Made by a program: the position numbers and the translations under genes. The notes beneath the pieces are model-generated. The model was not told the origin of the DNA and did not search any database. It worked only from the letters and a program-made list of their open reading frames with translations. From NCBI GenBank assembly GCA_016780745.1, contig JADHLJ010000001.1, positions 1 to 34,536 of the forward strand: 34,536 bases of DNA. The letters are read 5' to 3'. Positions 16,607 to 34,536 of this stretch are shown here, one piece after another (the first letter of the stretch is position 1; every line of letters starts with the position of its first letter). The stretch is from Alphaproteobacteria bacterium. Its GTDB lineage: Bacteria; Pseudomonadota; Alphaproteobacteria; Thalassobaculales; Thalassobaculaceae.

Positions 16607-16990
16607 ATGTTGCGAATTCCAAACCGACGAGATCGGGGTTTAGGAATCTGGAGCGCGCGGTTGCTCGCGCTCATGCTGATGGCCGTGGTATCAGGCTTCG
16701 CGTTCTCGGCGCCGGCGAACGCGCTTTCGCTTGATGAAGCCCGCGCGCAAGGCCTGATTGGCGAGCAGCCGAACGGATATCTCGGGCTGGTGCCAGGGCA
16801 ATCCAACGCACGGGCCGCGACGCTGGTCGAGCAGATCAACGCTAAACGTCGCGCCGCCTATCAATCAGTGGCGGACAGCAACGGCACGACTTTGAAGTCG
16901 GTCGAAGCACTGGCCGGAAGCAAACTAATTGGTCGGCTCCAACCCGGGCAATGGTTTCGGGACCAGGGCGGTCAATGGCGACGCCGCTGA
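16607..16990 (+). CDS. ydbL: YdbL-like periplasmic protein (DUF1318)
   Basis: The track ORF is 16562..16990. The ATG at 16607 is preceded by a gggggga SD. There is a signal peptide ending SAPANA|LSL. The mature part LDEARAQGLIGEQPNGYLGLV...INAKRRAAYQSVADSNGTTL matches the DUF1318 pattern. Confidence 0.75.
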   Translation: MLRIPNRRDRGLGIWSARLLALMLMAVVSGFAFSAPANALSLDEARAQGLIGEQPNGYLGLVPGQSNARAATLVEQINAKRRAAYQSVADSNGTTLKSVEALAGSKLIGRLQPGQWFRDQGGQWRRR

Positions 16991-18285: not shown

Positions 18286-18299
18286 GATTTCTGATGGCC

Positions 18300-19658: not shown

Positions 19659-19665
19659 CGGTCAC

Positions 19666-21435
19666 TCACGCGTTAGCTGGACTGGTTACGACGTTGATTG
19701 CTCGATCGTCGGGCTGTTTGCTTCCACCGCCGCCGCCAAGAATTGGAAGCATCTCTTCCCTAGGGCCGATGCGCTGAATTTTACCATCCACCAGCACCAT
19801 TACATAGTCCAGGACCTTTAGGATATTTGGTCTGTGCAAGATCAAAACGACGGTTACGCCGCGCCGCTTTAACTCTTCAATCGCCGCCGCGAGCGCTTCT
19901 TCGCCATGGGCGTCGAGATTGGCGTTCGGTTCGTCCAAAACCACGAGCTTTACATCGCCATAGAGCGCGCGGGCCAAGCCAACACGCTGCATCTGCCCCC
20001 CCGACAATAGCGTGCCACCATTGCCGACAACGGTCTGATAGCCTTGGGGCATGAACTTGACCATCGTGTCGACATTGGCGAGACGGGCGGCGTCCAGGAT
20101 TCTTTCGCTGGTCCAGTCGTCGGCTTGTCGCGCGATATTGTCGCGTACCGTTCCGCCGAATAACTCAACATCCTGAGGCAGATAGCCGATATGGGCGCCG
20201 AGGTCGACCGATGGCCATTCATGTAGATGCGAGCCATCGAGTTTCACGGATCCGGCGCTTGGTCGATCGAGGCCCACGAGAAGTCGGGCCAAGGTCGACT
20301 TGCCGGAAGCGGAAGGACCGACGATCCCCAAGGACTCTCCGGGCTTCAGCGAAAAGTCGATGTCTTTCAAAACTGGTTCAGGCGCCGAGGGAGGATGGAA
20401 ATTCAATCCTTCAACCTTCAGTTCCCCTTGGGGGGCGGGCGGCGTTTCTTGCTGGGCCGGTGTCCGCGCGGCGGCCTGTCGCAGCGCCGCCGACAAGGCC
20501 TTGTAATCACCTATCGCTTCGTTGATCGGCGCCCAGCCGGTGACCAGAAACTGCACCGGCATTAGGACACGCCCCACGAGGATGACCGATGCCATCATTG
20601 CACCGCGTGACAAATTGGTGTCGGGGTGGATGATCAGGATCGCGCAAACGGTCATGATTGCCATCATCGAGCCGAACTGCATGGTTTTGCCGACCGCCGC
20701 CATCAGTCCCATGCGTCTCGTGAAGATCGCGAGCCTATCGAGAGCGACATCGTTGTCCTGCTCCCAACGGCGCCCGACCCGTGCGCCCATCCCCATGGCT
20801 TCGATGACGTCGGCGTTGCGCAGGCTTACCTCGGCCTTGCGATTGGACTCGCCCATCGCGGCCAGGCCGACCTCGCGAACCGGACCGGTCGCCCATTTGT
20901 TGGCGAGCGCTAGGAAGAGAATGAACACGGCGATCGTCGTGGCGGCGACGCCGATCCAGAACTGTAAGAAGAAAAGAAATGCCAGAAATAACGGCACCCA
21001 CGGTAGGTCCATGACCATGAAGATTTGTTCGCCGGCTAGGAAGTTCCGGAGGGAATCCATGCGGCTCAGAAGTTCCGTGTCACGTCTTGATCCACGCGCC
21101 GTGGCGTTGCGCAAGGAAAGCGCGAAAATTTTTCGCCCGATCTGGTGGGCGATCCATGAACTTACACGCACGAACAAATAGGTGCGCGCGATATCAATCA
21201 CGGCCTGGATAAGAAGGGCGGATAACGCGAAGAGCGCCAGGAACGTGAGGGTAAACTGGTTGCCACCACCGCCCAAGACACGGTCGAAAAGCGAGAACAT
21301 ATAGACAGGCATGACCAATATGAGGGCATTGACGAAAAAGCTGAAGATCGCGGCGGTCGCGAACGCCCCGCGCGCCGCCCACAGCATCTCCTTCAGGGGA
21401 TCGCCACCTGACGCGGTCTTGGTTCCTGCGGCCAT
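19666..21435 (-). CDS. Type I secretion system permease/ATPase (PrtD/AprD/RsaD type, no C39 peptidase or CLD domain)
   Basis: 589 aa. It has an N-terminal 6-TM domain (FSFFVNALILVMPVYMFSLFDRVL), Walker A GPSASGKST, ABC signature LSGGQMQR and Walker B LVVLDEPNANLD. An AGGTGA SD lies 5 nt upstream of the ATG. Confidence 0.92.
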   Translation of the reverse strand: MAAGTKTASGGDPLKEMLWAARGAFATAAIFSFFVNALILVMPVYMFSLFDRVLGGGGNQFTLTFLALFALSALLIQAVIDIARTYLFVRVSSWIAHQIGRKIFALSLRNATARGSRRDTELLSRMDSLRNFLAGEQIFMVMDLPWVPLFLAFLFFLQFWIGVAATTIAVFILFLALANKWATGPVREVGLAAMGESNRKAEVSLRNADVIEAMGMGARVGRRWEQDNDVALDRLAIFTRRMGLMAAVGKTMQFGSMMAIMTVCAILIIHPDTNLSRGAMMASVILVGRVLMPVQFLVTGWAPINEAIGDYKALSAALRQAAARTPAQQETPPAPQGELKVEGLNFHPPSAPEPVLKDIDFSLKPGESLGIVGPSASGKSTLARLLVGLDRPSAGSVKLDGSHLHEWPSVDLGAHIGYLPQDVELFGGTVRDNIARQADDWTSERILDAARLANVDTMVKFMPQGYQTVVGNGGTLLSGGQMQRVGLARALYGDVKLVVLDEPNANLDAHGEEALAAAIEELKRRGVTVVLILHRPNILKVLDYVMVLVDGKIQRIGPREEMLPILGGGGGSKQPDDRAINVVTSPANA

Positions 21436-21637: not shown

Positions 21638-22921
21638 ATGTCGAGGAAAAGGCGACTTTACGTGAAAATTCTGTTTGTTCACCAGAACATGCCGGGCCAA
21701 TACAAGCATCTGGCCCCCGCCTTGGCCGCCAACCCGGCGAATGAAGTGGCGTTCATCACCAAGGAAGGCAAGCCCGACCTGCCCGGCATCAGGAAAGCGA
21801 CGTATAAACTTACCCGTGAGCCTAGCAAGGGGATCCACCAATATCTGACCCGACTGGAGGACCAGGTCCTGCACGGACAGGGTGCTGTTCGCGCCGCCCT
21901 CGAATTGGCGGAAAGCGGGTTTGTTCCAGATGTGATCTGCGCTCATACGGGGTGGGGGGAGGCGCTATTCCTGAGAGATGTCTTCCCGAATTCCCGAATC
22001 CTGGCATTTTCCGAATTCTATTATTCCTCGAAGGGCGCGGATATCGACTTTTCGCCGGATCATAAACCGGATCTCGATCGTGATTGCCGTACCCGCATGC
22101 GCAACACCCATATGCTCATGAGTCTGGAGGCCGCCGACTGGGGTATCAGCCCGACCCGATGGCAATGGAGTCGGCATCCGTCTTTCGTCCGTGATCGTAT
22201 TTCGGTTATTCACGAAGGCGTGGACACTGACTTGTGCACCGCCGACCCCAAGGCAGTGCTTGAGCTACCCAATGGCATGACGCTGTCCAGAGACGATGAA
22301 GTGGTTACGTATCTCGCCCGAAATCTGGAGCCCTATCGCGGCTTTGACATCTTCATGCAAAGTATCAACGGCATTCTTGAACGTAGGCCGAACGCGCGCA
22401 TTGTGTTGGTGGGCGGGGACGACGTCAGTTACGGCAATCCCCCGCCCAATGGTGAGAATTGGCGGAACTTCATGTTGGCGCGCACCAGATTTGACCCGCG
22501 CCGCGTGCATTTTTTTAATCGTGTGCCGTATTCCGTTTTTCAGCAGGTGTTGTCGATTTCAAAGGCGCATGTCTATCTGACCTATCCTTTCGTGCTGTCC
22601 TGGTCGATGTTGGAGACCATGAGCCACGAATGCATGCTGATTGCGTCAAAAACCGCGCCCGTGACCGAGGTTGTCGAGGACGGCGTCAACGGTCGCCTGG
22701 TATCCTTTCACAATCCGGCCGAGATAACCGATGCGGTGGTTTGGGCCTTGGAGAACCAGGATGCCACGGTCAAGTACCGCAAGGCCGCGCGCGAAACCAT
22801 CGTCGAGAAATACGATCTTCGAAAAGTGTGCTTGCCGGCGCAGGTCGATCTCGTCTCCACACTCGCGGAAGGGCGAACGCCGCCGCTGATGGACCCGACA
22901 TGGACGGCCGCGACGGCTTGA
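21638..22921 (+). CDS. Glycosyltransferase, GT4-like (GT-B fold)
   Basis: 427 aa from the ATG at 21638. An alternative GTG at 21662 is preceded by aggaaaagg. The N-terminus is KILFVHQNMPGQYKHLAPAL...HTGWGEALFLRDVFP and the C-terminal half is typical GT-B (VLVGGDDVSYG..., LETMSHECMLIASKTAPVTEVVEDGVNG). Confidence 0.8.
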   Translation: MSRKRRLYVKILFVHQNMPGQYKHLAPALAANPANEVAFITKEGKPDLPGIRKATYKLTREPSKGIHQYLTRLEDQVLHGQGAVRAALELAESGFVPDVICAHTGWGEALFLRDVFPNSRILAFSEFYYSSKGADIDFSPDHKPDLDRDCRTRMRNTHMLMSLEAADWGISPTRWQWSRHPSFVRDRISVIHEGVDTDLCTADPKAVLELPNGMTLSRDDEVVTYLARNLEPYRGFDIFMQSINGILERRPNARIVLVGGDDVSYGNPPPNGENWRNFMLARTRFDPRRVHFFNRVPYSVFQQVLSISKAHVYLTYPFVLSWSMLETMSHECMLIASKTAPVTEVVEDGVNGRLVSFHNPAEITDAVVWALENQDATVKYRKAARETIVEKYDLRKVCLPAQVDLVSTLAEGRTPPLMDPTWTAATA

Positions 22922-24549
22922 TGATCAGGGCCCGGGAAGCGCTTTCCCGAGGTGACACGGATGCGGCGTCCCGCGCCTTTCGCGCCTGTATCTGTAGCGA
23001 GCCGGAACAGGCGAGAGGCTACTTTAATGTCGGCGTGCTTTTTGGCCGTGGTGACTATCCCGGGGCCGCGGAGGCGGTTTATCGCCGGGCCCTTCTAATC
23101 GAGCCGGTTCACGAAGGCGCTCTCGGTAACCTCGCGGATCTTTTGTTGTTCGCCGGTCGTGACGTCGAGGCGGAGACGCTTTGCGCCGTTGCCTCTCGGA
23201 GGGCGCCACTTTCCGGAAAAATTCAAGGCAATTTGGCTCTTCTTCGTCTGCGGCGCGGCGCGAGGGATGAAGCGGGGTTGAACATCCGGCGCTCTCTTTG
23301 CGCGGAGCCGGGCTACGCGAAGGCTTGGGGGATCATGGCAATGCTGCGCCACGATGACGGTCTCGTCGCCGAGACCGCTTATGGTCGCGCTTGGTCGAGT
23401 GGTGCGCGCGATCCCGGGCTGCTAGCCAATCGTGGTGAAATCGCGCAACGCGAAGGGCGCATCGGCGCGGCGATGGAATTTTACAATCAGGCGTTGGCGA
23501 TGGCGCCGGGCGACGCGGATATCTTGGCGAATCTCGCCACGGCGAGCATCGACGACGGCGATTTCCGCGCCGCGTCCCGCCATGCGGCGGCGGCTCTGCG
23601 GATCGATCCGGGCCATCGCGTCGCGCGTTGGATCGAAGACTGGGTGTCCCTTGCACATCGCGATTTTGAAACTGGCTTCCGTAGTTTTGATGAGACATGG
23701 CGCGCGCCCGATCAAGACGCTCCGGCGAATGCGACGGCCTACCCTCTTTGGGAAGGGGGACGACTTGATGGTCCGCTTCTGTTGTGGTGCGAGCACGGGC
23801 TTGGCGACGAGATCCTTTACGCTGGCATGATCGACGATGTGTTGTCCTTGGGCGTTGATGTTGTGCTGGAAGCTGATCCGCGGTTGGTGCCCTTGTTTCA
23901 ACGATCCTGGCCCGTGGCGCGGGTGATCGGACGGGGAGGGGCGATACCACCGGGCATCGTCGCTCAGTCCTCGGTTTTGCGACTGCCGATGTTGTTTCGT
24001 CGAACGCTTGCGGATTTCCCCGCGCGATCATCATATCTGATCGCCGATCCGGCAAAGGTCGCGACGTACCGGGAACTATTCAAACAATCCGATCGGGAAA
24101 CCGTCATTGGAATTTCCTGGCGTTCTGGAAATCTCCGTACCGGCGCGGGCAAATCCACGCGCTTAAAGGATTGGGACGCGTTGCTGGACCTGCCGGGCGC
24201 GCAATTCCTAAGCCTACAATACGACGATGGCGGCGAGACCGACCCTCGTGTGGCGTGCAACCCGAGCGACGATACGAAAAACGATCTCGAAGATCTCGCG
24301 GCTCAGATCGCGGCGCTCGATCACGTCGTTTCAATATCCGGGGTGACCGCGCATCTCGCCGGGGCGTTGGGCGTGCCAGGGCACGTCCTGCTGCCGCCGG
24401 CGCCGCTCTGGTTCTGGTTCGCCGAGGGGGGGGATTGTCCGTGGTATCCAGCTCTTACACTCGGGCGGCGTGCCCATGGCGAGGATTGGCCCCCGGCGGT
24501 CGCGCGACTTGCGGCGGCGACGCGGGCATTCTTAGCGAACCAACGGTGA
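22921..24549 (+). CDS. TPR-repeat protein fused to a GT9-like domain, paralogue 2
   Basis: The track ORF 22630..24549 overlaps the upstream gene. The in-frame ATG at 22921 shares its A with the GT4 TGA stop (TGATG). It has TPR-like repeats (AEAVYRRALLIEPVHEGALGNLADLL..., AMEFYNQALAMAPGDADILANLA...). The C-terminal part reads LLLWCEHGLGDEILYAGM...VTAHLAGALGVPGHVLLPPAPLWFWFAEGGDCPWYPALTL. Confidence 0.75.
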   Translation: MIRAREALSRGDTDAASRAFRACICSEPEQARGYFNVGVLFGRGDYPGAAEAVYRRALLIEPVHEGALGNLADLLLFAGRDVEAETLCAVASRRAPLSGKIQGNLALLRLRRGARDEAGLNIRRSLCAEPGYAKAWGIMAMLRHDDGLVAETAYGRAWSSGARDPGLLANRGEIAQREGRIGAAMEFYNQALAMAPGDADILANLATASIDDGDFRAASRHAAAALRIDPGHRVARWIEDWVSLAHRDFETGFRSFDETWRAPDQDAPANATAYPLWEGGRLDGPLLLWCEHGLGDEILYAGMIDDVLSLGVDVVLEADPRLVPLFQRSWPVARVIGRGGAIPPGIVAQSSVLRLPMLFRRTLADFPARSSYLIADPAKVATYRELFKQSDRETVIGISWRSGNLRTGAGKSTRLKDWDALLDLPGAQFLSLQYDDGGETDPRVACNPSDDTKNDLEDLAAQIAALDHVVSISGVTAHLAGALGVPGHVLLPPAPLWFWFAEGGDCPWYPALTLGRRAHGEDWPPAVARLAAATRAFLANQR

Positions 24550-24560
24550 CCAAACAAACC

Positions 24561-25241
24561 CTAGGCGAGGCGATCTCGCTCGGCTAACCAAAGATCCGCG
24601 TAGTCCACGTGCCGCCAGTTCTCGAACCAGGGCCCGCCGCGTGTGAAGTGGATGGCGCCGGGCGCCCGTTCCGGATCTGGACTGTCCCAACCCTCAAGCC
24701 AATTCCATGTCGGGTCAAGACCGCCGATCTCCGCGTCGTCGACCCACTGAAAACGGTGCAAATAAGCGCCGGATTGTGTGTTCGCCGTTTCCACGTTGAG
24801 CTTGCGAGTGGCCGGGTGACTACAATTCAATAACATCAGGCTCGACCAGTTTTTACGTGGGTAGACGGACTGGGTCTGGCCATCCATCTTGACCGTTTCC
24901 CTCGGGCGATAGTCGTGCTGGACACACATTACGGCGTATTTCTCGTCCGCTTTCGCGAAAATCTCGGCGACGTCGCGAGTCCAGAGAAAATCGCAATCGC
25001 AGAACAGTGCCCAGCCTTCGTATCCCGCGAGATGGGGGACCAGAAACCGAGTGTAGGTAAACTCGGTCGAAGCTAGGGGGTCGACATCCCGATGATACAA
25101 GCCACGTTCGCGCAGGTCGTCCTGGATGATTGGCGTAATGTGGAGCGTGGCGTTGGAATGTCGCTCGAGAGAGGCGCGGCAAACATCAAAGGCTTCGGGC
25201 TCTCGACTGTCCCATCCAACGTATATCCGCAATGCGCTCAT
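24561..25241 (-). CDS. Putative GT-A fold glycosyltransferase (GT8-like, DXD = DCD)
   Basis: The track ORF is 24561..25376. The likely start is the ATG at 25241 (MSALRIYVGWDSREPEAFDVC...). The internal sequence STEFTYTRFLVPHLAGYEGWALFCDCDFLW has a DXD-type motif, followed by ...YPRKNWSSLMLLNC. It resembles small GT8-like transferases. The family call comes from motif memory only. Confidence 0.5.
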   Translation of the reverse strand: MSALRIYVGWDSREPEAFDVCRASLERHSNATLHITPIIQDDLRERGLYHRDVDPLASTEFTYTRFLVPHLAGYEGWALFCDCDFLWTRDVAEIFAKADEKYAVMCVQHDYRPRETVKMDGQTQSVYPRKNWSSLMLLNCSHPATRKLNVETANTQSGAYLHRFQWVDDAEIGGLDPTWNWLEGWDSPDPERAPGAIHFTRGGPWFENWRHVDYADLWLAERDRLA

Positions 25242-25423
25242 TCCATTCTCCGGCCCCGGCCCGGTGGCGATCCAGGATCGGCGAGTGATAGCGAACCTGC
25301 CTAGCCAAGGCAACGCGGCAATCCGCCCGGGTTGCCCGCCGCTCTCGACATCCATCCCCATCTCGGATAAAGCCAAGCGCTGATTTCAACGTTGCTTTCA
25401 TCCTATGTTTGGTCATCTCTAGA

Positions 25424-27094
25424 ATGTCCCCACGACCGAATTGCGCGATCAACTACCACCCCGACGGTTACAAGGCGGATCGGGAACAGGTTAAAGGGCG
25501 GCATGCCGCCGGCGCCGGCTTCCTGAAAGGCTTCATTGATCACTCCGGGGTGGACCGGCTCGTCGCGATGACCCCGTCCAAGACGCATTTCGAGGACTTC
25601 CGGAATGTTGCCCGGGCGCTTGATCCCGCTGGGCGCGAAGCGGTCTGGGCTCGCCCATTGGACGCGCGGGTCCTGCGCGAGGTTGGCGCGATTTTCATGC
25701 CTGGCCCAGGTTTCGAGGACGAGGCATGGAACAGGCGCCTCGGAAATGAGCGGGATTACAGTCTCTGCGGTCTTACCCACACTGTTGCCTCGGATCGGGT
25801 CATCAATGCGCTGGGCCGTTATCTCGTCGCGCCAACGCAGCCCTGGGATGCGCTTATCTGTACCTCCACGTCGGTACGCGCGGTTGTTGAACGGGTCATC
25901 GAGAGCCACGCGGATTATCTCGCCGAGCGAAGTGGCACCCGTTTCGAGAATCCCGTTCAGCTTCCAGTGATACCACTCGGAGTTGATTGTGATTTTCACG
26001 CGCGGAGTGATGCTAGTCAGGGCGCGGGCGCGGATTTACGGCGGCGATTGGGTATTGCGGAAGATGATCTGGCGGCGCTTTTTCTCGGGCGTTTGTCGTT
26101 TCACGCGAAGGCACATCCAACGCCAATGTTGATGGCAATGGAACGCGCCGCGCGTCGAACGCCGGATCAAACGCTTCATCTCGTCATTGTTGGGCAGTTC
26201 CCAAATCAGTGGATCGAGAAGGAATTCAAGGATGCCGCCAAGCGGTTCTGCGGCGCCGCGCGGGTCCACATTCTGGACGGCGCGAGCCATGAGGTCGTTC
26301 GCGCGGCCTGGAGCGGTTCCGATATCTTCATCTCGTTGTCCGATAATATTCAGGAGAGCTTCGGGCTGACGCCGATCGAGGCAATGGCGGCCGGCCTTCC
26401 TTGCGTCGTTTCGGACTACGACGGCTATAAGGATACAGTGGTGGATGGCGAAACCGGTTTTCGGATCCCGACCACCGCCCCCGGCCCAGGAGCAGGCGTC
26501 GATATCGCCGATCGATACGGTATCGGCCTGGACAGCTACGATCGCTTCATAGGTATCGCCGCCTTGTCGACGATGACGGATGTTGATGCCTGCGCCGAGG
26601 CGATCAGCCGTCTCGCGACGGATCGGGATTTGCGCGCCCGCATGAGCGCGGCTGGTGTGGAGCGGGCTAGGCGTTTCTATGACTGGCGGGTTGTCGTGGA
26701 GTCATACCAGGACCTTTGGGCGGAACTCGCGGAGCTTCGATCCGGCGCCCAGGGGATCGGTATTCGCAACCACGCGACACAGGCCGCGAAAGTTGACTTC
26801 CCCGACCCTTTCGACATGTTTCAAGGGCATCCAAGCAGGCTCTTGACCGAGAATAGCGTGGTCGCCTTCAAGAGTAAGTCTCCGGCGCGAGACCTCGAGA
26901 TTGTGCGGATGGGAGAGTTGCATACTTTTGTGTCCTATGCCCTTCTGCCCGAGCCGTCGCTTGACGCGTTGATGGAGGAGTTGAGCGCGGGGCCGAAGAA
27001 AGTCGGGGACCTTGCCGCCTTCTCGCGTGACGGGCGCAAACTGCTGCGCACCCTGGCGTGGTTGGGCAAGTTTGATTTGGTGGAGTTCAAATGA
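25424..27094 (+). CDS. Glycosyltransferase family 4 (retaining GT-B) with extended N-terminal domain
   Basis: The track ORF begins at TTG 25409; the first ATG is at 25424 (MSPRPNCAINYHPDGY...). The EX7E motif is in ESFGLTPIEAMAAGLPCVVSDYDGYKDTVVDGETGF. About 556 aa. Confidence 0.85.
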   Translation: MSPRPNCAINYHPDGYKADREQVKGRHAAGAGFLKGFIDHSGVDRLVAMTPSKTHFEDFRNVARALDPAGREAVWARPLDARVLREVGAIFMPGPGFEDEAWNRRLGNERDYSLCGLTHTVASDRVINALGRYLVAPTQPWDALICTSTSVRAVVERVIESHADYLAERSGTRFENPVQLPVIPLGVDCDFHARSDASQGAGADLRRRLGIAEDDLAALFLGRLSFHAKAHPTPMLMAMERAARRTPDQTLHLVIVGQFPNQWIEKEFKDAAKRFCGAARVHILDGASHEVVRAAWSGSDIFISLSDNIQESFGLTPIEAMAAGLPCVVSDYDGYKDTVVDGETGFRIPTTAPGPGAGVDIADRYGIGLDSYDRFIGIAALSTMTDVDACAEAISRLATDRDLRARMSAAGVERARRFYDWRVVVESYQDLWAELAELRSGAQGIGIRNHATQAAKVDFPDPFDMFQGHPSRLLTENSVVAFKSKSPARDLEIVRMGELHTFVSYALLPEPSLDALMEELSAGPKKVGDLAAFSRDGRKLLRTLAWLGKFDLVEFK

Positions 27095-28887
27095 GCTACA
27101 TGGTGCAAGCGGATGCAAAGCCACGCCGGCCCGTCGCGCAGTATTGCCGTGATGCCGATAAGTTGTTCGAGGCGAAGAAAATAGCCGAGGCCGAGGCGCT
27201 TTTGTCGGAAGCCATTGGTGCTTACACCGCGGATGTCGGACTTCAATGGCGGATGGCCGATGTCGAGTTCAGAAAAGGCCAAGTGGCGGCCGCCAAGCAA
27301 CGATTGGTTCGGGCTGGTAACGGCAATCCCGCCGGATGCGACGGCGCGTTCTTCAATGCCGGTGTTCGATTGGGGCGTGCCGCCAAGGATATCGCCTTTG
27401 CCGAAGGCATGGTGAAAGCAGGACTGGAACGCTTTCCGTTGAATCCCGAGTTGCGCCAGCACGCTGGCGGGCTGCTCGCCGACGCGGGGAAACACGCCGC
27501 CGCGGTCGAGCAACTCGAGGCGGCTGTCAATATGGATCCGACAAATGCGCCAGCGCTGAATGCCCTGGGGTATTCACTGGAGCAGATCGGAGAATTGGAC
27601 CGCGCTGATCGCGTGCTACGGAGTGCCCTGGGTCGGGTGACGCCCGAGATCGGGTTCAATGTCCTCGTAAATCTTGGCAATGTGGCGCAGAAACGCGGCG
27701 CGTTGGCGCAGGGGCGCGGTTATTATCAACGGGCTCTTAAGCTTCGGAAGCCTGGGTATCTCTATGCGAACTATGGCGCGCTGCTTCGAAAATCCCATGA
27801 CTTCGACACCGCCGAGTTGGTGTACCGCAAAGGGCTGACAATCGACCCGGGCGCGGGCGGTTCCTATTACAATCTCGCGAACCTCTACAAGGAGGTTGGC
27901 GACCTCGATCGCGCGATCGAAGCCTATCGGCGAGGGCTTCGGATCAACCCGGAAGGGGCATCGATCCATTGGAATCTTTCCTTGACCTATCTTGGCGCTG
28001 GCCGATTGCGAGAAGGTTTCGAGGAATACGAGTGGCGATGGCGGTATGACGGCTTTCCCTCTCGCCGGCGAAATTTCGAGCAACCGCAATGGAGCGGCGA
28101 ACCACTCAAAGGACGAACCCTGCTCGTGCATGCCGAGCAGGGGATCGGGGACCATCTTCAATTCGCGCGTTTCATTCCCGTGCTCTCGAAGCTCGACGGC
28201 CGGGTGATCGTCGAGTGCCATGAGCCGCTGATGCGTCTGTTTCAGCACTATGCCGGGGATGTAGAGATCGTTGAGCGCTTGAAGCAGCCGAATGATTTTG
28301 ATCTGCATCTTCCATTGTTGAGCGCGCCACTAGCGCTGGGCGTCCACTCCTTGGAGGATCTTCCGGGCGCGCCGTTCCTAGCGCCGCCGGTGGATTGGAA
28401 GTTCGATATTCCCGAGGCCAAGGCGAACGCTTTCAAGGTTGGTATAATCTGGGGTGGGAATCCGAATTTCCCGGGGGATGGCGAGCGTTCCGCGAAACTC
28501 GACTACTATCTGCCGTTGCTGAAGAACAAGCGCGTTCAACTCTTCAGTTTGCAAAAGGGCGAGCGAGAGCCGGATTTGAAGGACGCGCCGAAAGAGGTCG
28601 TGCGTCTAAGCGATAGAATCAACGACTTCTGCGATACCGCCTCGATTATGACGCAGATGGATCTAGTTATCACCACCTGTACCTCGACGGCGCATCTCGC
28701 GGGCGCCTTGGGAGTCCCGGTTTGGGTCGCGCTGCACCACAACCCGGATTGGCGTTGGCTACGGCATCGCGAGGATAGTCCCTGGTATCCGAGCGCGCGG
28801 TTGTTTCAACAGAAAAGTCCGGGTGATTGGAAAGGCGTGTTCAAATCCATCGAGCGAGCCTTGAAGAAATCAACCGCCAAACGCTGA
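27091..28887 (+). CDS. TPR-repeat protein fused to a GT9-like domain, paralogue 3
   Basis: 598 aa. Its ATG overlaps the GT4 stop (ATGA at 27091-27094). It has multiple TPR repeats (NALGYSLEQIGELDRADRVLRSAL, YYNLANLYKEVGDLDRAIEAYRRGLRINPEGA...). The C-terminal part reads WSGEPLKGRTLLVHAEQGIGDHLQFARF...TSTAHLAGALGVPVWVALHHNPDWRWLRHREDSPWYPSARLFQQ. Confidence 0.8.
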   Translation: MSYMVQADAKPRRPVAQYCRDADKLFEAKKIAEAEALLSEAIGAYTADVGLQWRMADVEFRKGQVAAAKQRLVRAGNGNPAGCDGAFFNAGVRLGRAAKDIAFAEGMVKAGLERFPLNPELRQHAGGLLADAGKHAAAVEQLEAAVNMDPTNAPALNALGYSLEQIGELDRADRVLRSALGRVTPEIGFNVLVNLGNVAQKRGALAQGRGYYQRALKLRKPGYLYANYGALLRKSHDFDTAELVYRKGLTIDPGAGGSYYNLANLYKEVGDLDRAIEAYRRGLRINPEGASIHWNLSLTYLGAGRLREGFEEYEWRWRYDGFPSRRRNFEQPQWSGEPLKGRTLLVHAEQGIGDHLQFARFIPVLSKLDGRVIVECHEPLMRLFQHYAGDVEIVERLKQPNDFDLHLPLLSAPLALGVHSLEDLPGAPFLAPPVDWKFDIPEAKANAFKVGIIWGGNPNFPGDGERSAKLDYYLPLLKNKRVQLFSLQKGEREPDLKDAPKEVVRLSDRINDFCDTASIMTQMDLVITTCTSTAHLAGALGVPVWVALHHNPDWRWLRHREDSPWYPSARLFQQKSPGDWKGVFKSIERALKKSTAKR

Positions 28888-28899
28888 TTGGACTTCGGA

Positions 28900-30108
28900 A
28901 TGCCCGGGCGCCGCATTCTTTTCATTTGGGAACTTGGTGACGGTCTGGGCCATGTATCCCGGATCTTGCCCTTGGCGCGCCAACTTCAAGCCGCCGGCGA
29001 GATTTGCATGTTCGCCGTCCGCAACGTGGAGAATAGCCATCGGGTTTTGGACGGGACGGGCATGGGGATGCTTCAGGCTCCTCTGACGCAACCGGTTACG
29101 GACTATGACGGAAAGGCCTCCATCGGCGCCTATGGCGACATCATGGAAACCATCGGATACGCGCGTGTCGAGCGATTGCACGCGATGTTGACCGCCTGGG
29201 ACGGGATCTATGAAACCGCGCGTCCAGACCTGATTGTCGCCGATTACGCGCCGACCGCCCTTCTCGCGGCCAGGGGGCGGATTCCGGCGGTTGCGATTGG
29301 TGACTGGTTCACCTTGCCGCCAAGCACGCTTCCAGCTTTCCCGTATCTGCGCGAGACCGGGCCCCGGATCGCGGAGGCGGATTTAATGCGCGTCGTTCAC
29401 GAGGCTCAGCGCCGACGGGGAGCATCGGCGCCGGCGGCAATGCCTGGAATTCTGGATTGCGCCGCGGCATTCATCATCACCTTGCCGGAACTTGACCAAT
29501 ACGCGGACAAGCGACGGCTGCCCGCTGTTGGGCCATTGACGCCGCTTCCCGAGCCGCTGGAGAACACGGACCACGAGGTGGACTACTTCGCGTATCTGTC
29601 GCTGGGATTTCGCCCGACCGTCAAGGTGCTCGAGGCGTTGGTCAAGATGCGGCTGAGGGGAAGTATCTATCTGCGTGACTCCTCCGCGCTTCAGCGTGAT
29701 TCCTGGCGCGAACGAGGGCTGACCATCCATGATGGACCGCAGGATCTGAGAGAAATGGCGCGTCGGAGCGCGGTGATGATCCATCATGGCGGGCTCGGGA
29801 CGATTGAAACGGTGTTTGCCTTGGGGCGTCCACAATTGCTGGTGCCCCGGCATTTGGAGCAAGGCGTGAACGCGGCGATGGCCGGGCGCTTGCGTTTGGC
29901 TGTTGGAATGCAAACCGGTGGACGATTCGAGGGGGAACACGTCTCGCGGGCGTTGAATCACGCGCTGGCATCCAAGGATCTTCGGGACAATGCCGCTCGG
30001 AAGGCCGAGGAACTGGCCCAGCGAGGACCGTTCAACGCGCTTGAACCGGTGACTGAATTCTGTTTAACCACGCTGGCGACGGGTATCCAGCAATCGAAGG
30101 GATCATAA
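28900..30108 (+). CDS. GT1-family (UDP-glycosyltransferase / MGT-like) glycosyltransferase
   Basis: The start is ATG 28900 or TTG 28888. The N-terminus is RILFIWELGDGLGHVSRILPLA. The C-terminal nucleotide-sugar signature is MIHHGGLGTIETVFALGRPQLLVPRHLEQGVNA, matching the HHGGxGT...(D/E)Q..NA pattern. Confidence 0.8.
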   Translation: MPGRRILFIWELGDGLGHVSRILPLARQLQAAGEICMFAVRNVENSHRVLDGTGMGMLQAPLTQPVTDYDGKASIGAYGDIMETIGYARVERLHAMLTAWDGIYETARPDLIVADYAPTALLAARGRIPAVAIGDWFTLPPSTLPAFPYLRETGPRIAEADLMRVVHEAQRRRGASAPAAMPGILDCAAAFIITLPELDQYADKRRLPAVGPLTPLPEPLENTDHEVDYFAYLSLGFRPTVKVLEALVKMRLRGSIYLRDSSALQRDSWRERGLTIHDGPQDLREMARRSAVMIHHGGLGTIETVFALGRPQLLVPRHLEQGVNAAMAGRLRLAVGMQTGGRFEGEHVSRALNHALASKDLRDNAARKAEELAQRGPFNALEPVTEFCLTTLATGIQQSKGS

Positions 30109-30109
30109 G

Positions 30110-31018
30110 ATGGCGTTGGACAATAAAATGGCGGGCAAGGATCTCAATGATGACGATATCCGCGACAAAATCCCGTTGGTTGCCAAGGATCACCCGGACC
30201 ACAAGTCGCGTTTCTCGGTGGCTGGTGTCGAGTTCGGTGGCCCGCTGATCCCGGTGATGGGCGGCCCGAACACCGTTGAGAACGAGGAAATGATCGTCAA
30301 GACCGCCAAGGGCATTAAGGCCTCGGGCGGCCATTTCCTACGCGGCGGCGCGTTCAAGCCGCTGACCTTTCCGTACCGTAGCGAGAAATACTACGAGACC
30401 CGCGAGCAGGGCCTGGAATGGCTTCAGGTTGCCAAGAAGGAAACCGGCCTGCCGGTCGTCACCGAGGTGATGGACGTCGCCAAGATCGACGTGGTCGCAA
30501 AGAACAGCGACATGCTGCAGATCGGCACTCGCAACATGCAGAATTACGTCCTGTTGACCGAGGTCGGCAAGACCGGGATGCCGGTGATGTTGAAGCGGGG
30601 TTATGGCTCCTCGCTTCGTGATTGGCTGATGGCGGCGGAATACATCGCGCTCGAACATGACCGTCTTGGCCAACAGCAGCAGATCGTGCTGTGTGAACGC
30701 GGCGTGGTGTCGAACCATACGCATCGCGCGGGCTCTCGCTTCCTGCTCGATCTTCAAGTGGTTCCGGCGGCCCAGGACGTCACCCATCTCCCGGTGATGA
30801 CCGATCCTTCGCACGCGACTTTCTGGCAGCCCTGGGTGAAGCCGATGATGCTGGCTTCAATTGGCGCCGGCGCGGACGGGCTGATGCTGGAAGTTCATCC
30901 AAACCCGCCTGAAGCCGCCGTCGATCCGCTCCAATGCAGCTCTCTCGAACAGTTCGACGAGATGATGAAGGCGATGCGCCCCGTGGCCGCCGCGATTGGA
31001 CGCACGCTGGACGCGTAA
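30110..31018 (+). CDS. Divergent DAHP-synthase-I-beta / KDO8P-synthase superfamily PEP-dependent aldolase
   Basis: 302 aa, with an AAGGGA SD; the ATG lies 1 nt after the GT1 stop. The backbone motifs are LRGGAFKP, LPVVTEVMD, MLQIGTRNMQNY, PVMLKRG, VLCERG, LPVMTDPSH and GADGLMLEVHPNP..A.VD. There are two deviations from the canon: GGPNTVEN where DAHPS has GPCxVES, and KPLTFPY where it has KPRTSPY. Confidence 0.8.
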   Translation: MALDNKMAGKDLNDDDIRDKIPLVAKDHPDHKSRFSVAGVEFGGPLIPVMGGPNTVENEEMIVKTAKGIKASGGHFLRGGAFKPLTFPYRSEKYYETREQGLEWLQVAKKETGLPVVTEVMDVAKIDVVAKNSDMLQIGTRNMQNYVLLTEVGKTGMPVMLKRGYGSSLRDWLMAAEYIALEHDRLGQQQQIVLCERGVVSNHTHRAGSRFLLDLQVVPAAQDVTHLPVMTDPSHATFWQPWVKPMMLASIGAGADGLMLEVHPNPPEAAVDPLQCSSLEQFDEMMKAMRPVAAAIGRTLDA

Positions 31019-31106: not shown

Positions 31107-32294
31107 ATGACCCATGTTCTGGTCGACGCGCTGATCGAGCATTTTCGAAATACGCCGCGCGATCGCATGGCGCGTGGCGATTTCTACCGTATCAATCATG
31201 ATTTTGTCGCGGCGGCTCGTGATCAAGGGTTTAACGCGACGATCGAGGATGCGGCCCGGTTGCTTGAAGACGGTGTGTCACCATCGCTCTGGGCCGAAAC
31301 CTCCCGCCAACGCGAGGCGACTCATCTCGCGCTTCGCCAGGTCGCGGGGATGGCGCCCGAGACCGTTCTTGATCGTGCAATTTTGGACTTTTTGAACGGA
31401 TCGCCCGGTGACGCTGTCCGCGGCATTGGCGAAGTTCAACGTCAGGGTATCGAGAGCTTTGGAAAATATCGTTCCATGCTCAATCGTGGACACGACCGTG
31501 GGCTGGCGATCTGGCAGGTTATGAACCCGTTCTATTTCCTGTGGGCGTCGCTGCCGGTCGCTAGGACCACGCCCAGCGATCGATGGCGCGAGGATCAGTT
31601 CAACAACACGCCCGAGCCGACCACCGAGAGCACGCGGTCGGCCAACGATCGTATGCTGGTGGAATTTCTACGCGGCGAGTTGGGTTCCGAGTTCTGGTCG
31701 ACGACAAGCGTGTTGGATTGTGGTTGCGGGCACGGGCATACCGCCAGCTTGCTGATAGATGAACTCGGCGTTGATCCGTCGGCCTACTCCGCCTTTGATC
31801 TGCACGAAAAGCGCGTTGAGCGCACCAGGTCCGTGGCTCTGAGCGCCGCGTCCAACATGTCCGCGACGCCTGCCGGCGCTTCAATAGACGATCGCTTTTT
31901 CCCATTGGATATCCTCGCGGACGACGCACCCAAGCGTATTCAAGCGCTGGGGGAGGTCGATGTGGTTTTTTCGACAAGCTTCACCAACGTGTTCGATGAC
32001 ACGCAACTTCCACTGATCCTGAAAAGGATGACGCTGCCCAAGCCAAAGGTGATCGTTGATATCTCGGTGACCACCAGTTGGGGCTTTTGTATCGGTCGTA
32101 TCGATCCTTCGGCGGCGTATCGAGCGGCGGGCTACCAACTGCGGGTGTCGCGTCTTGAAACGCCCGCGCTAGAGGCGAACGAAACCCATCGGCTATGGAT
32201 GCCGCAACGCTATTGGTCCAATAGAAACATTTTGATCTACGAGAAAATTCCCGGGAGTGACGATCGCGATCTTGGAAAACAGCTTGGCGCTTAG
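31107..32294 (+). CDS. Class I SAM-dependent methyltransferase with ~200-aa N-terminal domain of unknown function
   Basis: 395 aa. SAM motif I is at about residue 205 (SVLDCGCGHGHTASLL), followed by the acidic post-I residue in AFDLHE and motif II-like VDVVFSTSF. I do not recognise the N-terminal half. Confidence 0.65.
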   Translation: MTHVLVDALIEHFRNTPRDRMARGDFYRINHDFVAAARDQGFNATIEDAARLLEDGVSPSLWAETSRQREATHLALRQVAGMAPETVLDRAILDFLNGSPGDAVRGIGEVQRQGIESFGKYRSMLNRGHDRGLAIWQVMNPFYFLWASLPVARTTPSDRWREDQFNNTPEPTTESTRSANDRMLVEFLRGELGSEFWSTTSVLDCGCGHGHTASLLIDELGVDPSAYSAFDLHEKRVERTRSVALSAASNMSATPAGASIDDRFFPLDILADDAPKRIQALGEVDVVFSTSFTNVFDDTQLPLILKRMTLPKPKVIVDISVTTSWGFCIGRIDPSAAYRAAGYQLRVSRLETPALEANETHRLWMPQRYWSNRNILIYEKIPGSDDRDLGKQLGA

Positions 32295-32339: not shown

Positions 32340-33230
32340 ATGTCGGACACTCTGTTCCCCGATTTACTCGACAATTCGGTTGCCGTGACCACCGAAAGAT
32401 ACGCGGCGATCCTGGGCCTGGCGCCATCAAAGGGCGCGCGTTCGCCAATTCTGTGGAACGCGGCTTTCGCGGTGGCCGGCATGGACGCGGTGATGCACCC
32501 CTTTGATGTCAACGAGGCCAAGTTGCCCGGTCTTGTCGCCGCGCTGAAAGCCGATCCTCGCTATATCGGCGGCAGTGTCGCGGTGCCGCACAAGCAAGGC
32601 CTGGTGCCGCTTCTCGATCGACTGGAGCCCGAGGCCGAGCGCATCGGCGCGGTAAACGCCATTTACCGTGACGGCGAAGATCTGGTCGGCGCCAATACCG
32701 ACGGCGCTGGGGCCTTGGCGCAGCTTCAAGAGGTTGTCGATGACTTGGCCGGACGGCACGCGATCGTGCTGGGGCTCGGCGGCGCCGGTTTGGCGGTGGC
32801 GGCTTATCTCGCGGCCAATGTTGCCTCGCTTCGGTTGGCGAACCGCACCGCCGAGACGGCAACCGCCTTCGCCGAGCGGTTGGGCGGCAAGGTGCGAGCG
32901 GTTGGGATGCCCAATTCCTCGGCGGATCTGCGCGGCGTCAATCTGATCGTGAACTGCACGTCGGTCGGGCACCAGGACGGCGATCAGGCCTCCTCGCTTG
33001 GTGATAACAGCGAGGCCCTGCTGGATGCCATGCCGGATGACACGGTGGTCTACGACATCATCTATCAGCCGGCGGAAACCGAGTTACTCCGTCAGGCAAA
33101 GGTGATCGGCTTGGTGACCCTGAACGGGCTCGGGATGAACCTGGATCAGGCGGTCATCGCCTTCGAGAAGGCCAATCCCGGACGGCTTTCCATCGACGAG
33201 ATTCGTGACGCCATGCAATCGGCTGGTTGA
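32340..33230 (+). CDS. Shikimate/quinate dehydrogenase family (AroE-like) oxidoreductase paralogue
   Basis: 296 aa. Motifs present are ARSPILWNAAF (SxSPxxHNxxF region), GGSVAVPHKQ (catalytic Lys), IGAVNAIY, GANTDGAGA (catalytic Asp), the Rossmann stretch VLGLGGAGLAVAAYL, the NRT motif and GLGMNLDQAV. AAGGA lies upstream. Confidence 0.8.
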   Translation: MSDTLFPDLLDNSVAVTTERYAAILGLAPSKGARSPILWNAAFAVAGMDAVMHPFDVNEAKLPGLVAALKADPRYIGGSVAVPHKQGLVPLLDRLEPEAERIGAVNAIYRDGEDLVGANTDGAGALAQLQEVVDDLAGRHAIVLGLGGAGLAVAAYLAANVASLRLANRTAETATAFAERLGGKVRAVGMPNSSADLRGVNLIVNCTSVGHQDGDQASSLGDNSEALLDAMPDDTVVYDIIYQPAETELLRQAKVIGLVTLNGLGMNLDQAVIAFEKANPGRLSIDEIRDAMQSAG

Positions 33231-33237
33231 GCCGTAA

Positions 33238-33741
33238 ATGACCGTCATACTGGTTCGTGATCCAGCCCAGGCCAGGCTGCCCCAGGAAGACGACGACGCG
33301 TTCTGGCCGCTTGATTTCGATCGAGCCGTCGATAGTCCCCTTGAAGACGTGCTTGCGGAATTCGATGTGGTGATACCGGCGGATGATCTCCGCGTCGCCC
33401 CGCGACTGAGCGGCAAGGCACGGGTCGCGCTGCACTGTGTCCGGCTCGAGGCGTTGGAGCATTTGATCTCCATCGCCGGCGATTTCGACATCATTTTCAG
33501 TCCTAGCCTTTTGACGCGTCTGGATCGGCACCGGTCGTTGCGGCCGACATTGTTGGCGGCGCGGGCGATGGATGCCGGGCATCGGATCGTGGCGGCTGAT
33601 CTGGGATCCGAGACCGGTGGTGCCGGCATGTCGGCGGAACTGAAAGACACTGTCATCGGACGCGTGCTGCTCTATGATTTGCCGTCCGGATCGGCCATCG
33701 ATTTCGGGATGATCGGAGAGCGCGGGGAGGAACCGGCGTGA
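33238..33741 (+). CDS. Hypothetical acidic protein, no recognisable family
   Basis: 167-aa ORF. It starts 7 nt after the AroE-like stop, and its stop overlaps the next gene's GTG (GTGA). Codon composition resembles its neighbours. The coding call rests on this operon packing. Confidence 0.55.
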   Translation: MTVILVRDPAQARLPQEDDDAFWPLDFDRAVDSPLEDVLAEFDVVIPADDLRVAPRLSGKARVALHCVRLEALEHLISIAGDFDIIFSPSLLTRLDRHRSLRPTLLAARAMDAGHRIVAADLGSETGGAGMSAELKDTVIGRVLLYDLPSGSAIDFGMIGERGEEPA

Positions 33742-34418
33742 TCAGCGTGGTGCTGCGGGCCAAGAACGAGGCGTTCTGGATGGACAAATGTCTGACCGCG
33801 CTTCGCAATCAACGGGTGCCGGACATCGATGTCGTCCTTGTCGACAACGAATCGACGGATGACACGGTGGCGATTTCCGAGGCCCATGGAGTGACGCTGC
33901 GGACGATCACTCGAGACGAGTTCTCTTATGGCCGCGCCCTCAATATCGGCATCGAGGCGGCCCGTCACGACGTGGTCGCGCTGCTGTCCTCGCATTGCGT
34001 GCCGATCGACGAGCTTTGGGCGGACTATCTGTTGGCGCATCTCGGACCCGAGGGCGATCCGGCGGTGTGCGGAGTTTATGGCCGGCAAGAACCGATGCCC
34101 GATACGAGCGCCATCGACAAGCGTGACCTCTGGACAACTTTTCGCGATGAGCGGGTGCGTCAGTGCCGGGATTATTTCTTCCACAACGCCAATTCCGGCA
34201 TTCGCAAGTCGATCTGGAGGGATGAGCCGTTCGACGAGGAGATCCGAGGTGTCGAGGATCGGGAATGGGGCAAGCGAATGATCCGCCTCGGCCATGAAAT
34301 CGTCTACGAGCCGCATCTCCGGGTTTACCATCAGCACGGCATCCATCAGGGTCGCGACGAGGGGCGGGCCAAGCGGGTCGCCGAGGTCATCGACTACATC
34401 CGCACGAGCGTGCCATGA
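33738..34418 (+). CDS. GT2-like (GT-A fold) glycosyltransferase
   Basis: 226 aa with a GTG start. It reads ISVVLRAKNEAFWMDKCLTALRNQRVPDIDVVLVDNESTDDT..., then FSYGRALNIGIEAARHDVVALLSSHCVP and later RGVEDREWGKRM. This layout is typical of short GT2 proteins. Confidence 0.65.
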   Translation: MISVVLRAKNEAFWMDKCLTALRNQRVPDIDVVLVDNESTDDTVAISEAHGVTLRTITRDEFSYGRALNIGIEAARHDVVALLSSHCVPIDELWADYLLAHLGPEGDPAVCGVYGRQEPMPDTSAIDKRDLWTTFRDERVRQCRDYFFHNANSGIRKSIWRDEPFDEEIRGVEDREWGKRMIRLGHEIVYEPHLRVYHQHGIHQGRDEGRAKRVAEVIDYIRTSVP

Positions 34419-34536
34419 GCGAAACCTTAATCATCGTGCCGGTCCTGGCGGCCTCGAAGAGCACCGAGGCGATCCTTAAACCATTGCGCGGGCCGTCCAG
34501 TCTGGAGCGGACCCTTGCCGCCGTGATCGAGGATCT
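34415..34536 (+). CDS. 5' end of a possible sugar nucleotidyltransferase (cytidylyltransferase-like), truncated by the window edge
   Basis: Its ATG overlaps the GT2 stop (ATGA). My own translation is MSETLIIVPVLAASKSTEAILKPLRGPSSLERTLAAVIED. It loosely follows the IIPARxxSKRxxxKxLxxLxGxPLI N-terminal pattern of CMP-sugar synthetases, but the Arg and the KN are not conserved. Only 40 codons are visible. Confidence 0.3.
   Translation, partial: MSETLIIVPVLAASKSTEAILKPLRGPSSLERTLAAVIED

Follow-up and report, generated by a model that had tools for sequence, protein, structure and literature searches.

We analysed a 34,536-nucleotide stretch of DNA (the window) from an alphaproteobacterium of the Thalassobaculaceae (assembly GCA_016780745.1, contig JADHLJ010000001.1, positions 1 to 34,536). 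Its subject here is a gene at 30110..31018 (+), the 302-residue product of which matches PF00793 and the solved structure 1VS1, and which we describe as a type Iβ-derived α-carboxyketose (ulosonic acid) synthase-like gene, derived from the DAHP synthases (DAHPS; DAHP is the 7-phosphate of 3-deoxy-D-arabino-heptulosonate). The open reading frame (ORF) is preceded by a Shine-Dalgarno-like GAAGGGA, and its start codon lies 1 nt past the stop of a GT1-like glycosyltransferase ORF (28888-30108). This 1-nt gap had been noted in an earlier reading of the letters alone (the sequence-only reading), as had the absence of a regulatory extension, and both remarks hold: the upstream ORF ends at 30108 and the synthase begins at 30110, while a Pfam search of all 302 residues gave PF00793 (DAHP_synth_1; E = 4.7e-47, residues 49-288) as the only match above threshold, with neither an ACT nor a chorismate-mutase (CM) domain. 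Every name seen in public databases for members of this family is "3-deoxy-7-phosphoheptulonate synthase", one record carrying the alternative name "N-acetylneuraminate synthase family protein". The best reading of the comparative evidence is that the synthase is no longer an aromatic-pathway enzyme and would belong to a distinct, uncharacterised clade derived from type Iβ DAHPS; it most likely makes a surface sugar acid.

Among the NCBIfam models the Iβ DAHP synthases give the best resemblance, yet every curated cutoff is missed: the synthase scores 303 bits with PRK08673 (cutoff 335), 260.1 with TIGR01361 (267.75) and 214 with PRK12595 (279). The models for KDO 8-phosphate synthase (KDO8PS, where KDO is 3-deoxy-D-manno-octulosonate; TIGR01362) reach approximately 78 bits of the 314 required, and the Pfam NeuB domain (PF03102) is sub-threshold at 20.3 bits against 22.1, covering residues 94-185 only. 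The best relatives in the Protein Data Bank (PDB; phmmer) are the DAHPS of Aeropyrum pernix, Pyrococcus furiosus and Thermotoga maritima (E = 2e-60 to 1e-50), with 1VS1 from A. pernix at the top (E = 2e-60); KDO8PS is a much weaker match (~1e-16). An AlphaFold (AF2) model, for which 11 family sequences served as input, predicts with moderate confidence (pLDDT 72, pTM 0.77) a (β/α)8 barrel. Foldseek aligns it with 1VS1 at a TM score of 0.75/0.83, DAHPS entries ranking best and KDO8PS second.

In Iβ DAHPS a Cys, a His, a Glu and an Asp hold the metal; phosphoenolpyruvate (PEP) is bound by three arginines, those of LRGG, G(A/S)RN and CERG, and by two lysines, those of FKP and LKRG; and the phosphate of erythrose 4-phosphate (E4P) is bound by KPRT through its Arg and Thr (PMC6362186). 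Pairwise phmmer alignments of the synthase to the solved Iβ enzymes 1VS1, 1ZCO and 4GRS place GGPNTVEN on aGPCSVES, with Asn54 (codon 30269..30271, +) standing at the metal-ligand Cys position of DAHPS and metallo-KDO8PS. In the same three alignments FKPLTFPY falls on FKPRTSPY, where Leu85 takes the place of the Arg that binds the E4P phosphate and the Thr is retained, and DPSHATFWQPWV (30803..30838, +) falls on DPSHPAGRRSLV. The former motif stands where DPSHxxGRRxLV is canonical; the metal-ligand His235 is kept and the canonical GRR has become TFWxPW. Two further motifs are without counterpart in canonical DAHPS. The segment Leu85-Thr-Phe-Pro-Tyr-Arg90 (30362..30379, +) ends in a family-specific, invariant Arg, and after CERG the canonical IRTFE is replaced by His203-Thr-His-Arg206 (30716..30727, +), in a low-confidence loop of the model; the His-Thr-His (HTH) part is common to sister lineages that retain the metal Cys. 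The codon positions of Asn54 and of Leu85-Arg90 were confirmed by translation.

The remaining binding residues are intact. All of the PEP binders (R78, K83, R141, K162, R197) are kept and are invariant in the family, as are His235, Glu261 and Asp272, so that among the binding residues only the metal Cys and the E4P Arg have been replaced. The motifs LRGGAFKP, QIGxRN, LKRG, CERG, DPSH and EVHP are likewise present and invariant. The sequence-only reading had described this type Iβ backbone, the Asn at the metal-ligand Cys and the loss of the KPRT Arg (KPLTFPY for KPRTSPY), and all of these are borne out, the Asn both by the phmmer alignments and by a MAFFT alignment of 249 sequences. Its claim that GTRN is a distinctive feature fails, QIGTRN being found in ordinary representatives with both Cys and Arg (P0126, P0133, P0135 and P0139).

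The closest relatives of the synthase are thus unregulated (A. pernix 1VS1, P. furiosus 1ZCO) and regulated (T. maritima 1RZM) Iβ DAHPS, to which it is alike in sequence (~40-45% identity, E = 2e-60), in fold (TM 0.75-0.86), in its PEP-binding residues and His, Glu and Asp positions and, as far as the archaeal enzymes are concerned, in being without an ACT or CM domain. It differs from them in having Asn for Cys, KPLT for KPRT, TFW for the loop GRR and HTHR for IRTFE, in an Asp loop that reads AVDPLQ rather than LSDGxQ, and in a conserved N-terminal extension of approximately 30 residues. The context differs as well: Iβ DAHPS belong with the aromatic pathway, the synthase with a cassette of CMP-sugar (CMP, cytidine monophosphate) and glycosyltransferase genes. 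Homology and fold are those of a DAHPS, whereas the complete Cys-His-Glu-Asp ligand set, the KPRT motif and scores above the curated cutoffs are lacking.

The second comparison is with KDO8PS. In the MAFFT alignment, in which the KDO8PS references are identical to 1FWN (Aquifex aeolicus) and 1D9E (Escherichia coli), the Asn54 column corresponds to Cys11 of the A. aeolicus and Asn26 of the E. coli enzyme. It had been stated beforehand that this residue separates metallo from non-metallo KDO8PS and that DAHP synthases are obligate metalloenzymes, and the literature agrees on both: in non-metallo KDO8PS an Asn replaces the metal-binding Cys, a change that is required for metal independence (PMC3052366), and the metal requirement of DAHPS is absolute (PMC12531865). 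The synthase, like non-metallo E. coli KdsA (1D9E), has Asn at the metal Cys and retains His, Glu and Asp. Since this is the non-metallo KDO8PS arrangement, metal independence is the simplest prediction, and by this analogy the synthase probably works without a bound metal, Asn54 taking over the role of Cys and metal in positioning the reactants. The KDO8PS product, too, is activated by a cytidylyltransferase, as we propose for the product of the synthase. In other respects the two part company. Identity to the E. coli enzyme is approximately 20%, the KANRS motif of KDO8PS, which binds arabinose 5-phosphate, is KPLTF in the synthase, the CDGP motif is also absent, the KDO8PS cutoffs are not reached, neither KdsC nor KdsD is encoded nearby, and the partner cytidylyltransferase resembles PseF more than KdsB. 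The synthase also falls in a separate clade, and for this reason its Asn would have arisen independently.

The loss of a metal ligand and of an Arg that binds substrate might instead mark a catalytically dead, or a purely structural or regulatory, DAHPS paralogue. This we regard as extremely improbable. Over 177 species genomes from several phyla neither the PEP binders nor the three remaining ligand positions vary, and such invariance points to an active site under selection.

A homologue search of 5.8 billion proteins returned at least 120 homologues among the matches listed, down to 62% identity. The combination of Asn and Leu occurs in all of the close homologues (99/99) in the 249-sequence alignment. 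It is rare outside of the family: among the 145 nearest 50%-identity representatives, 130 have Cys and Arg, three have Cys and Leu, and a single one, the low-GC P0124, has Asn and Leu. Eleven diverse members share GPN, FKPL, FPYR, QIG.RNMQN, LKR, CERG, HTHR, DPSHATFW.PWV, EVHP and AAVDPLQ without exception, as well as N5, G9, K10, D11, D16, K20, P22, L23, K26 and H31 in the N-terminal part. Judged from these sequences, the Cys and Arg losses are fixed and not accidental.

Relatives were also located by a pattern scan over one genome per species, and were found in 177 species genomes at 57-98% identity to the window protein. Their hosts include Thalassobaculaceae, Nisaea, Azospirillum, Denitromonas and Marinomonas, SAR116, SAR324 and many single-cell genomes of Pelagibacteraceae (SAR11), and a Prochlorococcus single-amplified genome (SAG), Ilumatobacteraceae (Actinobacteria), Methylomirabilota and Acidobacteria. 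The plasmid collection yielded only ordinary aroF relatives at no more than 46% identity. High similarity across phyla, together with patchy occurrence, indicates a gene that is accessory and horizontally spread. We found no paper in the literature that describes this family or its cassette.

The sequence-only reading had proposed an alignment and a phylogeny as its check, and these were carried out; the Asn lies in the Cys column and the family forms a clade within Iβ DAHPS. The neighbour-joining (NJ) tree comprised 69 sequences and 271 columns (Kimura distances, 100 bootstraps, rooted on KDO8PS). The family with Asn and Leu is monophyletic (bootstrap 67) and falls within a larger clade (bootstrap 55) to which five lineages retaining the Cys and lacking the Arg (P0122, P0161, P0213, P0190 and P0216) also belong. 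This larger clade is nested in DAHPS Iβ, far from KDO8PS. The support is modest (55-67) and comes from NJ as the only method. Because the family branches from within lineages that have lost the Arg and kept the Cys, the E4P Arg would have disappeared first and the change from Cys to Asn would have followed later, independently of the switch in KDO8PS. The five lineages, which are equally uncharacterised, keep the metal Cys and share with the family the N-terminal 'KDI(S/T)..DL' extension, the motif KP(L/A/C)TFPY and the HTH motif. Three representatives (P0121, P0123 and P0070) have the N-terminal half of the barrel duplicated internally, probably an artefact of assembly or gene calling, and were left out of the tree.

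Downstream of the synthase the window holds a series of genes on the same strand. The first encodes a 395-residue protein with weak matches to S-adenosylmethionine (SAM)-dependent methyltransferases (31107..32294, +), and is a lineage-specific insertion into the cassette: a methyltransferase-like gene between synthase and AroE-like gene is seen in 2/55 loci, those of the window lineage and one other. It is followed by an AroE-like oxidoreductase of the shikimate/quinate dehydrogenase family (32340..33230, +; PF08501, PF01488), a 167-residue protein with a C-terminal SAF domain (33238..33741, +; weak PF08666 match), a small GT2-family (GT-A) protein (33738..34418, +; PF00535, 2.8e-20) and the start of a gene for a 220-residue cytidylyltransferase-like protein with CTP_transf_3 matches (34415..34536, +), cut by the end of the window. 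Six contigs that carry the identical protein (L001-L006) extend the view past this point. Just beyond the window end they encode a PseF-like cytidylyltransferase of 237 residues, closest to PseF (105 bits, cutoff 205.7) with the KdsB models next, after which the operon continues with a methyltransferase, a 2-oxoglutarate (2OG)-Fe(II) oxygenase, a flavin adenine dinucleotide (FAD) oxidase, a class V aminotransferase and a short-chain dehydrogenase/reductase (SDR).

The neighbourhood was compared by tblastn over the 55 related loci with full flanks, counting neighbours within approximately 6.5 kb of the synthase. The PseF-like cytidylyltransferase is present in 45/55, the AroE-like gene in 42/55 and GT2 in 41/55, followed by the cytidylyltransferase-like protein (33/55), a Gfo/Idh/MocA oxidoreductase (26/55) and the SAF protein (19/55). 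Adjacency of a GT1-like gene is seen in 10/55, Nisaea included. Two layouts can be distinguished. In type A, that of the window and the Thalassobaculaceae, the order is synthase, AroE-like, SAF, GT2, cytidylyltransferase-like and cytidylyltransferase. In type B, found in SAR11, the Prochlorococcus SAG, Actinobacteria and others, it is cytidylyltransferase, a fusion of GT2 with the cytidylyltransferase-like domain (454 residues in the SAR11 locus L083 and others), Gfo/Idh/MocA, synthase and AroE-like. The cassette recurs at 57-65% identity in SAR11, the Prochlorococcus SAG, Actinobacteria, SAR324 and gamma- and betaproteobacteria. Genes for a CTP_transf_3 cytidylyltransferase and for glycosyltransferases are thus linked to the synthase, the mark of a CMP-ulosonic acid cassette; the hallmark of the cassette is a cytidylyltransferase of the PseF/KdsB family, enzymes of this type being those by which ulosonic acids are activated. 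Other recurrent neighbours look, by reading of their sequences, like carbamoyl-, sulfo- and methyltransferases, and L083 is flanked by asparagine synthase and by PseB-, PseC- and epimerase-like genes. Such variable flanks are typical of surface-glycan islands, and a patchy cassette shared across phyla is as expected of an accessory glycan gene rather than a housekeeping aro gene.

Some loci depart from these layouts. In Nisaea denitrificans (L021) and Azospirillum halopraeferens (L035) the synthase has no AroE-like, GT2 or cytidylyltransferase gene within 10 kb, and in L021 it is the last gene of the island, ahead of housekeeping genes of the metF/metH type.

The gene had been placed beforehand in a glycosylation operon rather than with aro genes. 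The first half of this statement stands, the synthase lying in a cassette with glycosyltransferases, and the second does not, an AroE-family gene being located nearby at 32340-33230; in the comparison the AroE-like gene is the most constant neighbour of the synthase after the cytidylyltransferase. The AroE-like protein holds both shikimate-dehydrogenase domains (PF08501 and PF01488) and aligns with 1NVT, 2EGG and 2HK9 over the PHK, GAVN, NTDG, Y-x-P and Q motifs. In AroE these motifs hold the catalytic Lys and Asp along with residues that bind shikimate. Of the SxS pair, which binds the carboxylate, the first Ser is replaced by Ala in this protein, and it falls below all AroE cutoffs (for instance, 165 bits against 200.2 for TIGR00507). 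Its PDB matches include 7COK, a 5-ketofructose reductase: a solved enzyme of the shikimate-dehydrogenase family with a keto-sugar as substrate.

The tight linkage of two shikimate-pathway homologues in 42/55 loci raises the alternative that the synthase is a genuine DAHP or DAHP-like synthase, which together with the AroE-like protein would form a shikimate/quinate-type branch giving a carbocyclic or aromatic substituent of a glycan. Retention of PHK, GAVN and NTDG in the AroE-like protein is congruent with this, as are the scores of some family members above the TIGR01361 cutoff and the DAHP synthase name given to the whole family in databases. We nevertheless consider such a branch improbable. 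The Arg for the E4P phosphate and the loop GRR have been lost, the cytidylyltransferase that is its constant partner belongs to the type used for ulosonic acids, the AroE-like protein scores under every AroE cutoff, and the Pfam-annotated genes of the cassette include no homologue of dehydroquinate synthase or dehydratase. On the last ground the complete shikimate-type branch was rejected; the other recurrent clusters of neighbours read, from their sequences, as aminotransferase-, amidotransferase-, methyltransferase- and epimerase-like. The AroE-like protein can be accommodated otherwise. The pyranose form of a 3-deoxy-2-ulosonic acid would be a close oxygen-ring analogue of quinate, with one carbon bearing both carboxylate and hydroxyl, a CH2 next to it and secondary alcohols beyond, and because of this mimicry of quinate and shikimate the AroE-like enzyme might act on a ring position of the new acid.

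A third family of comparison is NeuB/PseI/LegI, the members of which condense PEP with a non-phosphorylated sugar, the product being passed to a PseF/NeuA-type cytidylyltransferase and on to surface glycans or flagellin. The cassette resembles these systems in its SAF-domain protein and in a NeuB-like gene found in one locus, L087. The synthase itself is from another family and has no SAF domain in cis: a NeuB enzyme combines a PF03102 barrel with a C-terminal SAF domain, whereas here SAF is found only in the separate 167-residue protein. In addition, genes for tailoring of nucleoside diphosphate (NDP)-hexoses are not a constant part of the cassette, unlike in NeuB-type systems. Locus L087 is that of the Cys-retaining lineage P0122, which sits in the same type of cassette with the extra NeuB-like gene after AroE-like. 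This NeuB-like protein (L087 8643-9668) carries a SAF domain, to which the 167-residue protein of the window is 36% identical over 56 residues (E = 2e-8), and the two genes occupy the same cassette position. The 167-residue protein may be a NeuB capping domain left orphaned, and might work together with the DAHPS-like barrel. The PseB- and PseC-like genes of L083 prompted the idea that the synthase replaces NeuB/PseI in a pseudaminic-type pathway; as a general explanation it was rejected, a DegT-type aminotransferase cluster (cluster 21, by sequence reading) occurring in only seven loci and a NeuB-like gene only in L087, plus one weak match. The Cys-retaining, Arg-less P0161 (L088-L090) is located between a KduI-like gene and one for a 700-residue Maf/MptE-like protein; this context, different from that of the window, may also involve an ulosonic acid.

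The pocket suggests what kind of aldose is used. The replacements that line it (Leu85, Phe87, Phe238, Trp239 and Trp242) are hydrophobic, and tblastn with E. coli KdsC, a query checked against 2R8E, detected no KdsC-like phosphatase within ±10 kb of any of 90 loci. The hydrophobic replacements and the missing phosphatase suggest an aldose that is non-phosphorylated, perhaps deoxy or acylated.

Taken together, we favour a DAHPS-derived synthase, probably metal-free, that would condense PEP with an aldose other than E4P and feed a pathway to a CMP-activated ulosonic acid; we put the probability of this full statement at roughly 0.58. The sequence-only reading had likewise suggested a neo-functionalised PEP and aldose condensing enzyme making a 3-deoxy-ulosonic acid other than DAHP, and the substitutions, the cassette and the distribution lend comparative support to it. 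The synthase is expected to bind PEP and to carry out an aldol-like condensation of PEP with an aldehyde, as in α-carboxyketose synthases, yielding a 3-deoxy-2-ulosonic acid. The co-transcribed AroE-like dehydrogenase would then oxidise or reduce a hydroxyl or keto group on the ring of the pyranose acid, with participation of the Gfo/Idh/MocA oxidoreductase in most genomes. The PseF-like cytidylyltransferase would turn the acid into a CMP-sugar, and the GT2, GT1-like and tetratricopeptide repeat (TPR)-containing glycosyltransferases would pass the sugar to a surface glycan or glycoprotein.

Several observations weigh against this pathway or parts of it. The SAR11 member L083 scores above the TIGR01361 cutoff (278 against 267.75 bits), and some Nisaea and Azospirillum loci have upstream glycosyltransferases only, the partner genes not being within 10 kb. 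Good activity of non-metallo KDO8PS needs changes to the Asp-loop (CDGP) motif as well (PMC3052366), and the Asp loop of the synthase reads AAVDPLQ and is without CDGP. Arg90, which shares a loop with the lost Arg and follows it by five residues, could hold a phosphate or carboxylate, and His203-x-His205 could supply a replacement metal ligand. The sequence-only reading had mentioned neither Arg90 nor the HTHR motif, nor the AroE-like partner. The AF2 model is poor in the substrate loops, and active-site geometry was not drawn from it.

Arg90 and the two histidines lead to an alternative in which the pathway role is the same and the chemistry is not: the synthase would be a metalloenzyme with a new ligand (His203/His205), and/or would take a phosphorylated or acidic aldose held by Arg90. 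R90 and H203-T-H205-R206 do not vary within the family and are specific to it, the sister lineages that keep the Cys already have HTH, the metal of NeuB is held by two His residues (PMC12531865), and the Asp loop differs from the CDGP of non-metallo KDO8PS; the sole precedent, KDO8PS, however, pairs Asn at this position with loss of the metal (PMC3052366), the pocket-lining substitutions are to Leu, Phe and Trp, and a KdsC-like phosphatase is near none (0/90) of the loci. We consider this alternative doubtful as it stands, and most of the probability that is not assigned to the metal-free synthase acting on a non-E4P aldose goes to the same pathway role with metal and/or phosphate retained.

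A bolder formulation of the preferred pathway, which we put forward tentatively and at slightly less than even odds, is that the family represents a fourth class of α-carboxyketose synthases: a metal-independent DAHPS derivative that would use a non-phosphorylated aldose to make a CMP-ulosonic acid displayed on the surfaces of marine bacteria and Rhodospirillales. The pathway would run from the synthase through tailoring by the AroE-like and Gfo/Idh/MocA enzymes to activation by the PseF-like cytidylyltransferase, in SAR11, SAR116, SAR324 and some Prochlorococcus. If true, the family would stand beside DAHPS, KDO8PS and NeuB and would be a case of convergent metal-site loss: a natural replay, inside the DAHPS clade, of the passage from metallo to non-metallo enzyme for which KDO8PS is the only known example, and a second system in which to study the function of the metal. 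The naming of the family as DAHPS would then inflate the apparent aromatic-pathway content of genomes and hide a glycan pathway. In SAR11, SAR116 and other bacterioplankton the cassette is found in variable islands for surface glycans, where the sugar acid could matter for recognition by phages and grazers. A preprint on SugarBase describes unassigned CMP-linked α-keto acids (C10 CMP-ulosonic acids) in Magnetospirillum, a member of the Rhodospirillales; it names no synthase of this family's type and makes no link to the gene, and it illustrates that CMP-linked α-keto acid chemistry is still being uncovered.

Upstream of the synthase lies a glycosyltransferase block (21638..28887, +) in which two GT4 genes (21638-22921 and 25409-27094) alternate with two genes for TPR-containing proteins (22630-24549 and 27091-28887). 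The GT1-like (GT-B) gene at 28888..30108 (+), which has sub-threshold EryCIII-like_C and MGT-family matches, follows directly. The layout of the two TPR proteins, of 600 residues, resembles the TPR plus glycosyltransferase arrangement of FlmG-type protein glycosyltransferases, a lead taken from the literature. Also in the island is a 271-residue ORF on the opposite strand (24561-25376, −), which has no Pfam or NCBIfam match and is conserved in a few related loci. The flank at 16972-21435 (−) encodes a TPR plus GT9-like protein, an HlyD-family protein and an ABC transporter, the latter two resembling a type I secretion pair. At the other end of the window, a low-GC stretch at 1765-3877 (−; 0.449 against approximately 0.62) contains a 383-residue ORF with no Pfam match, which adjoins a tyrosine recombinase gene and a DUF484 gene.

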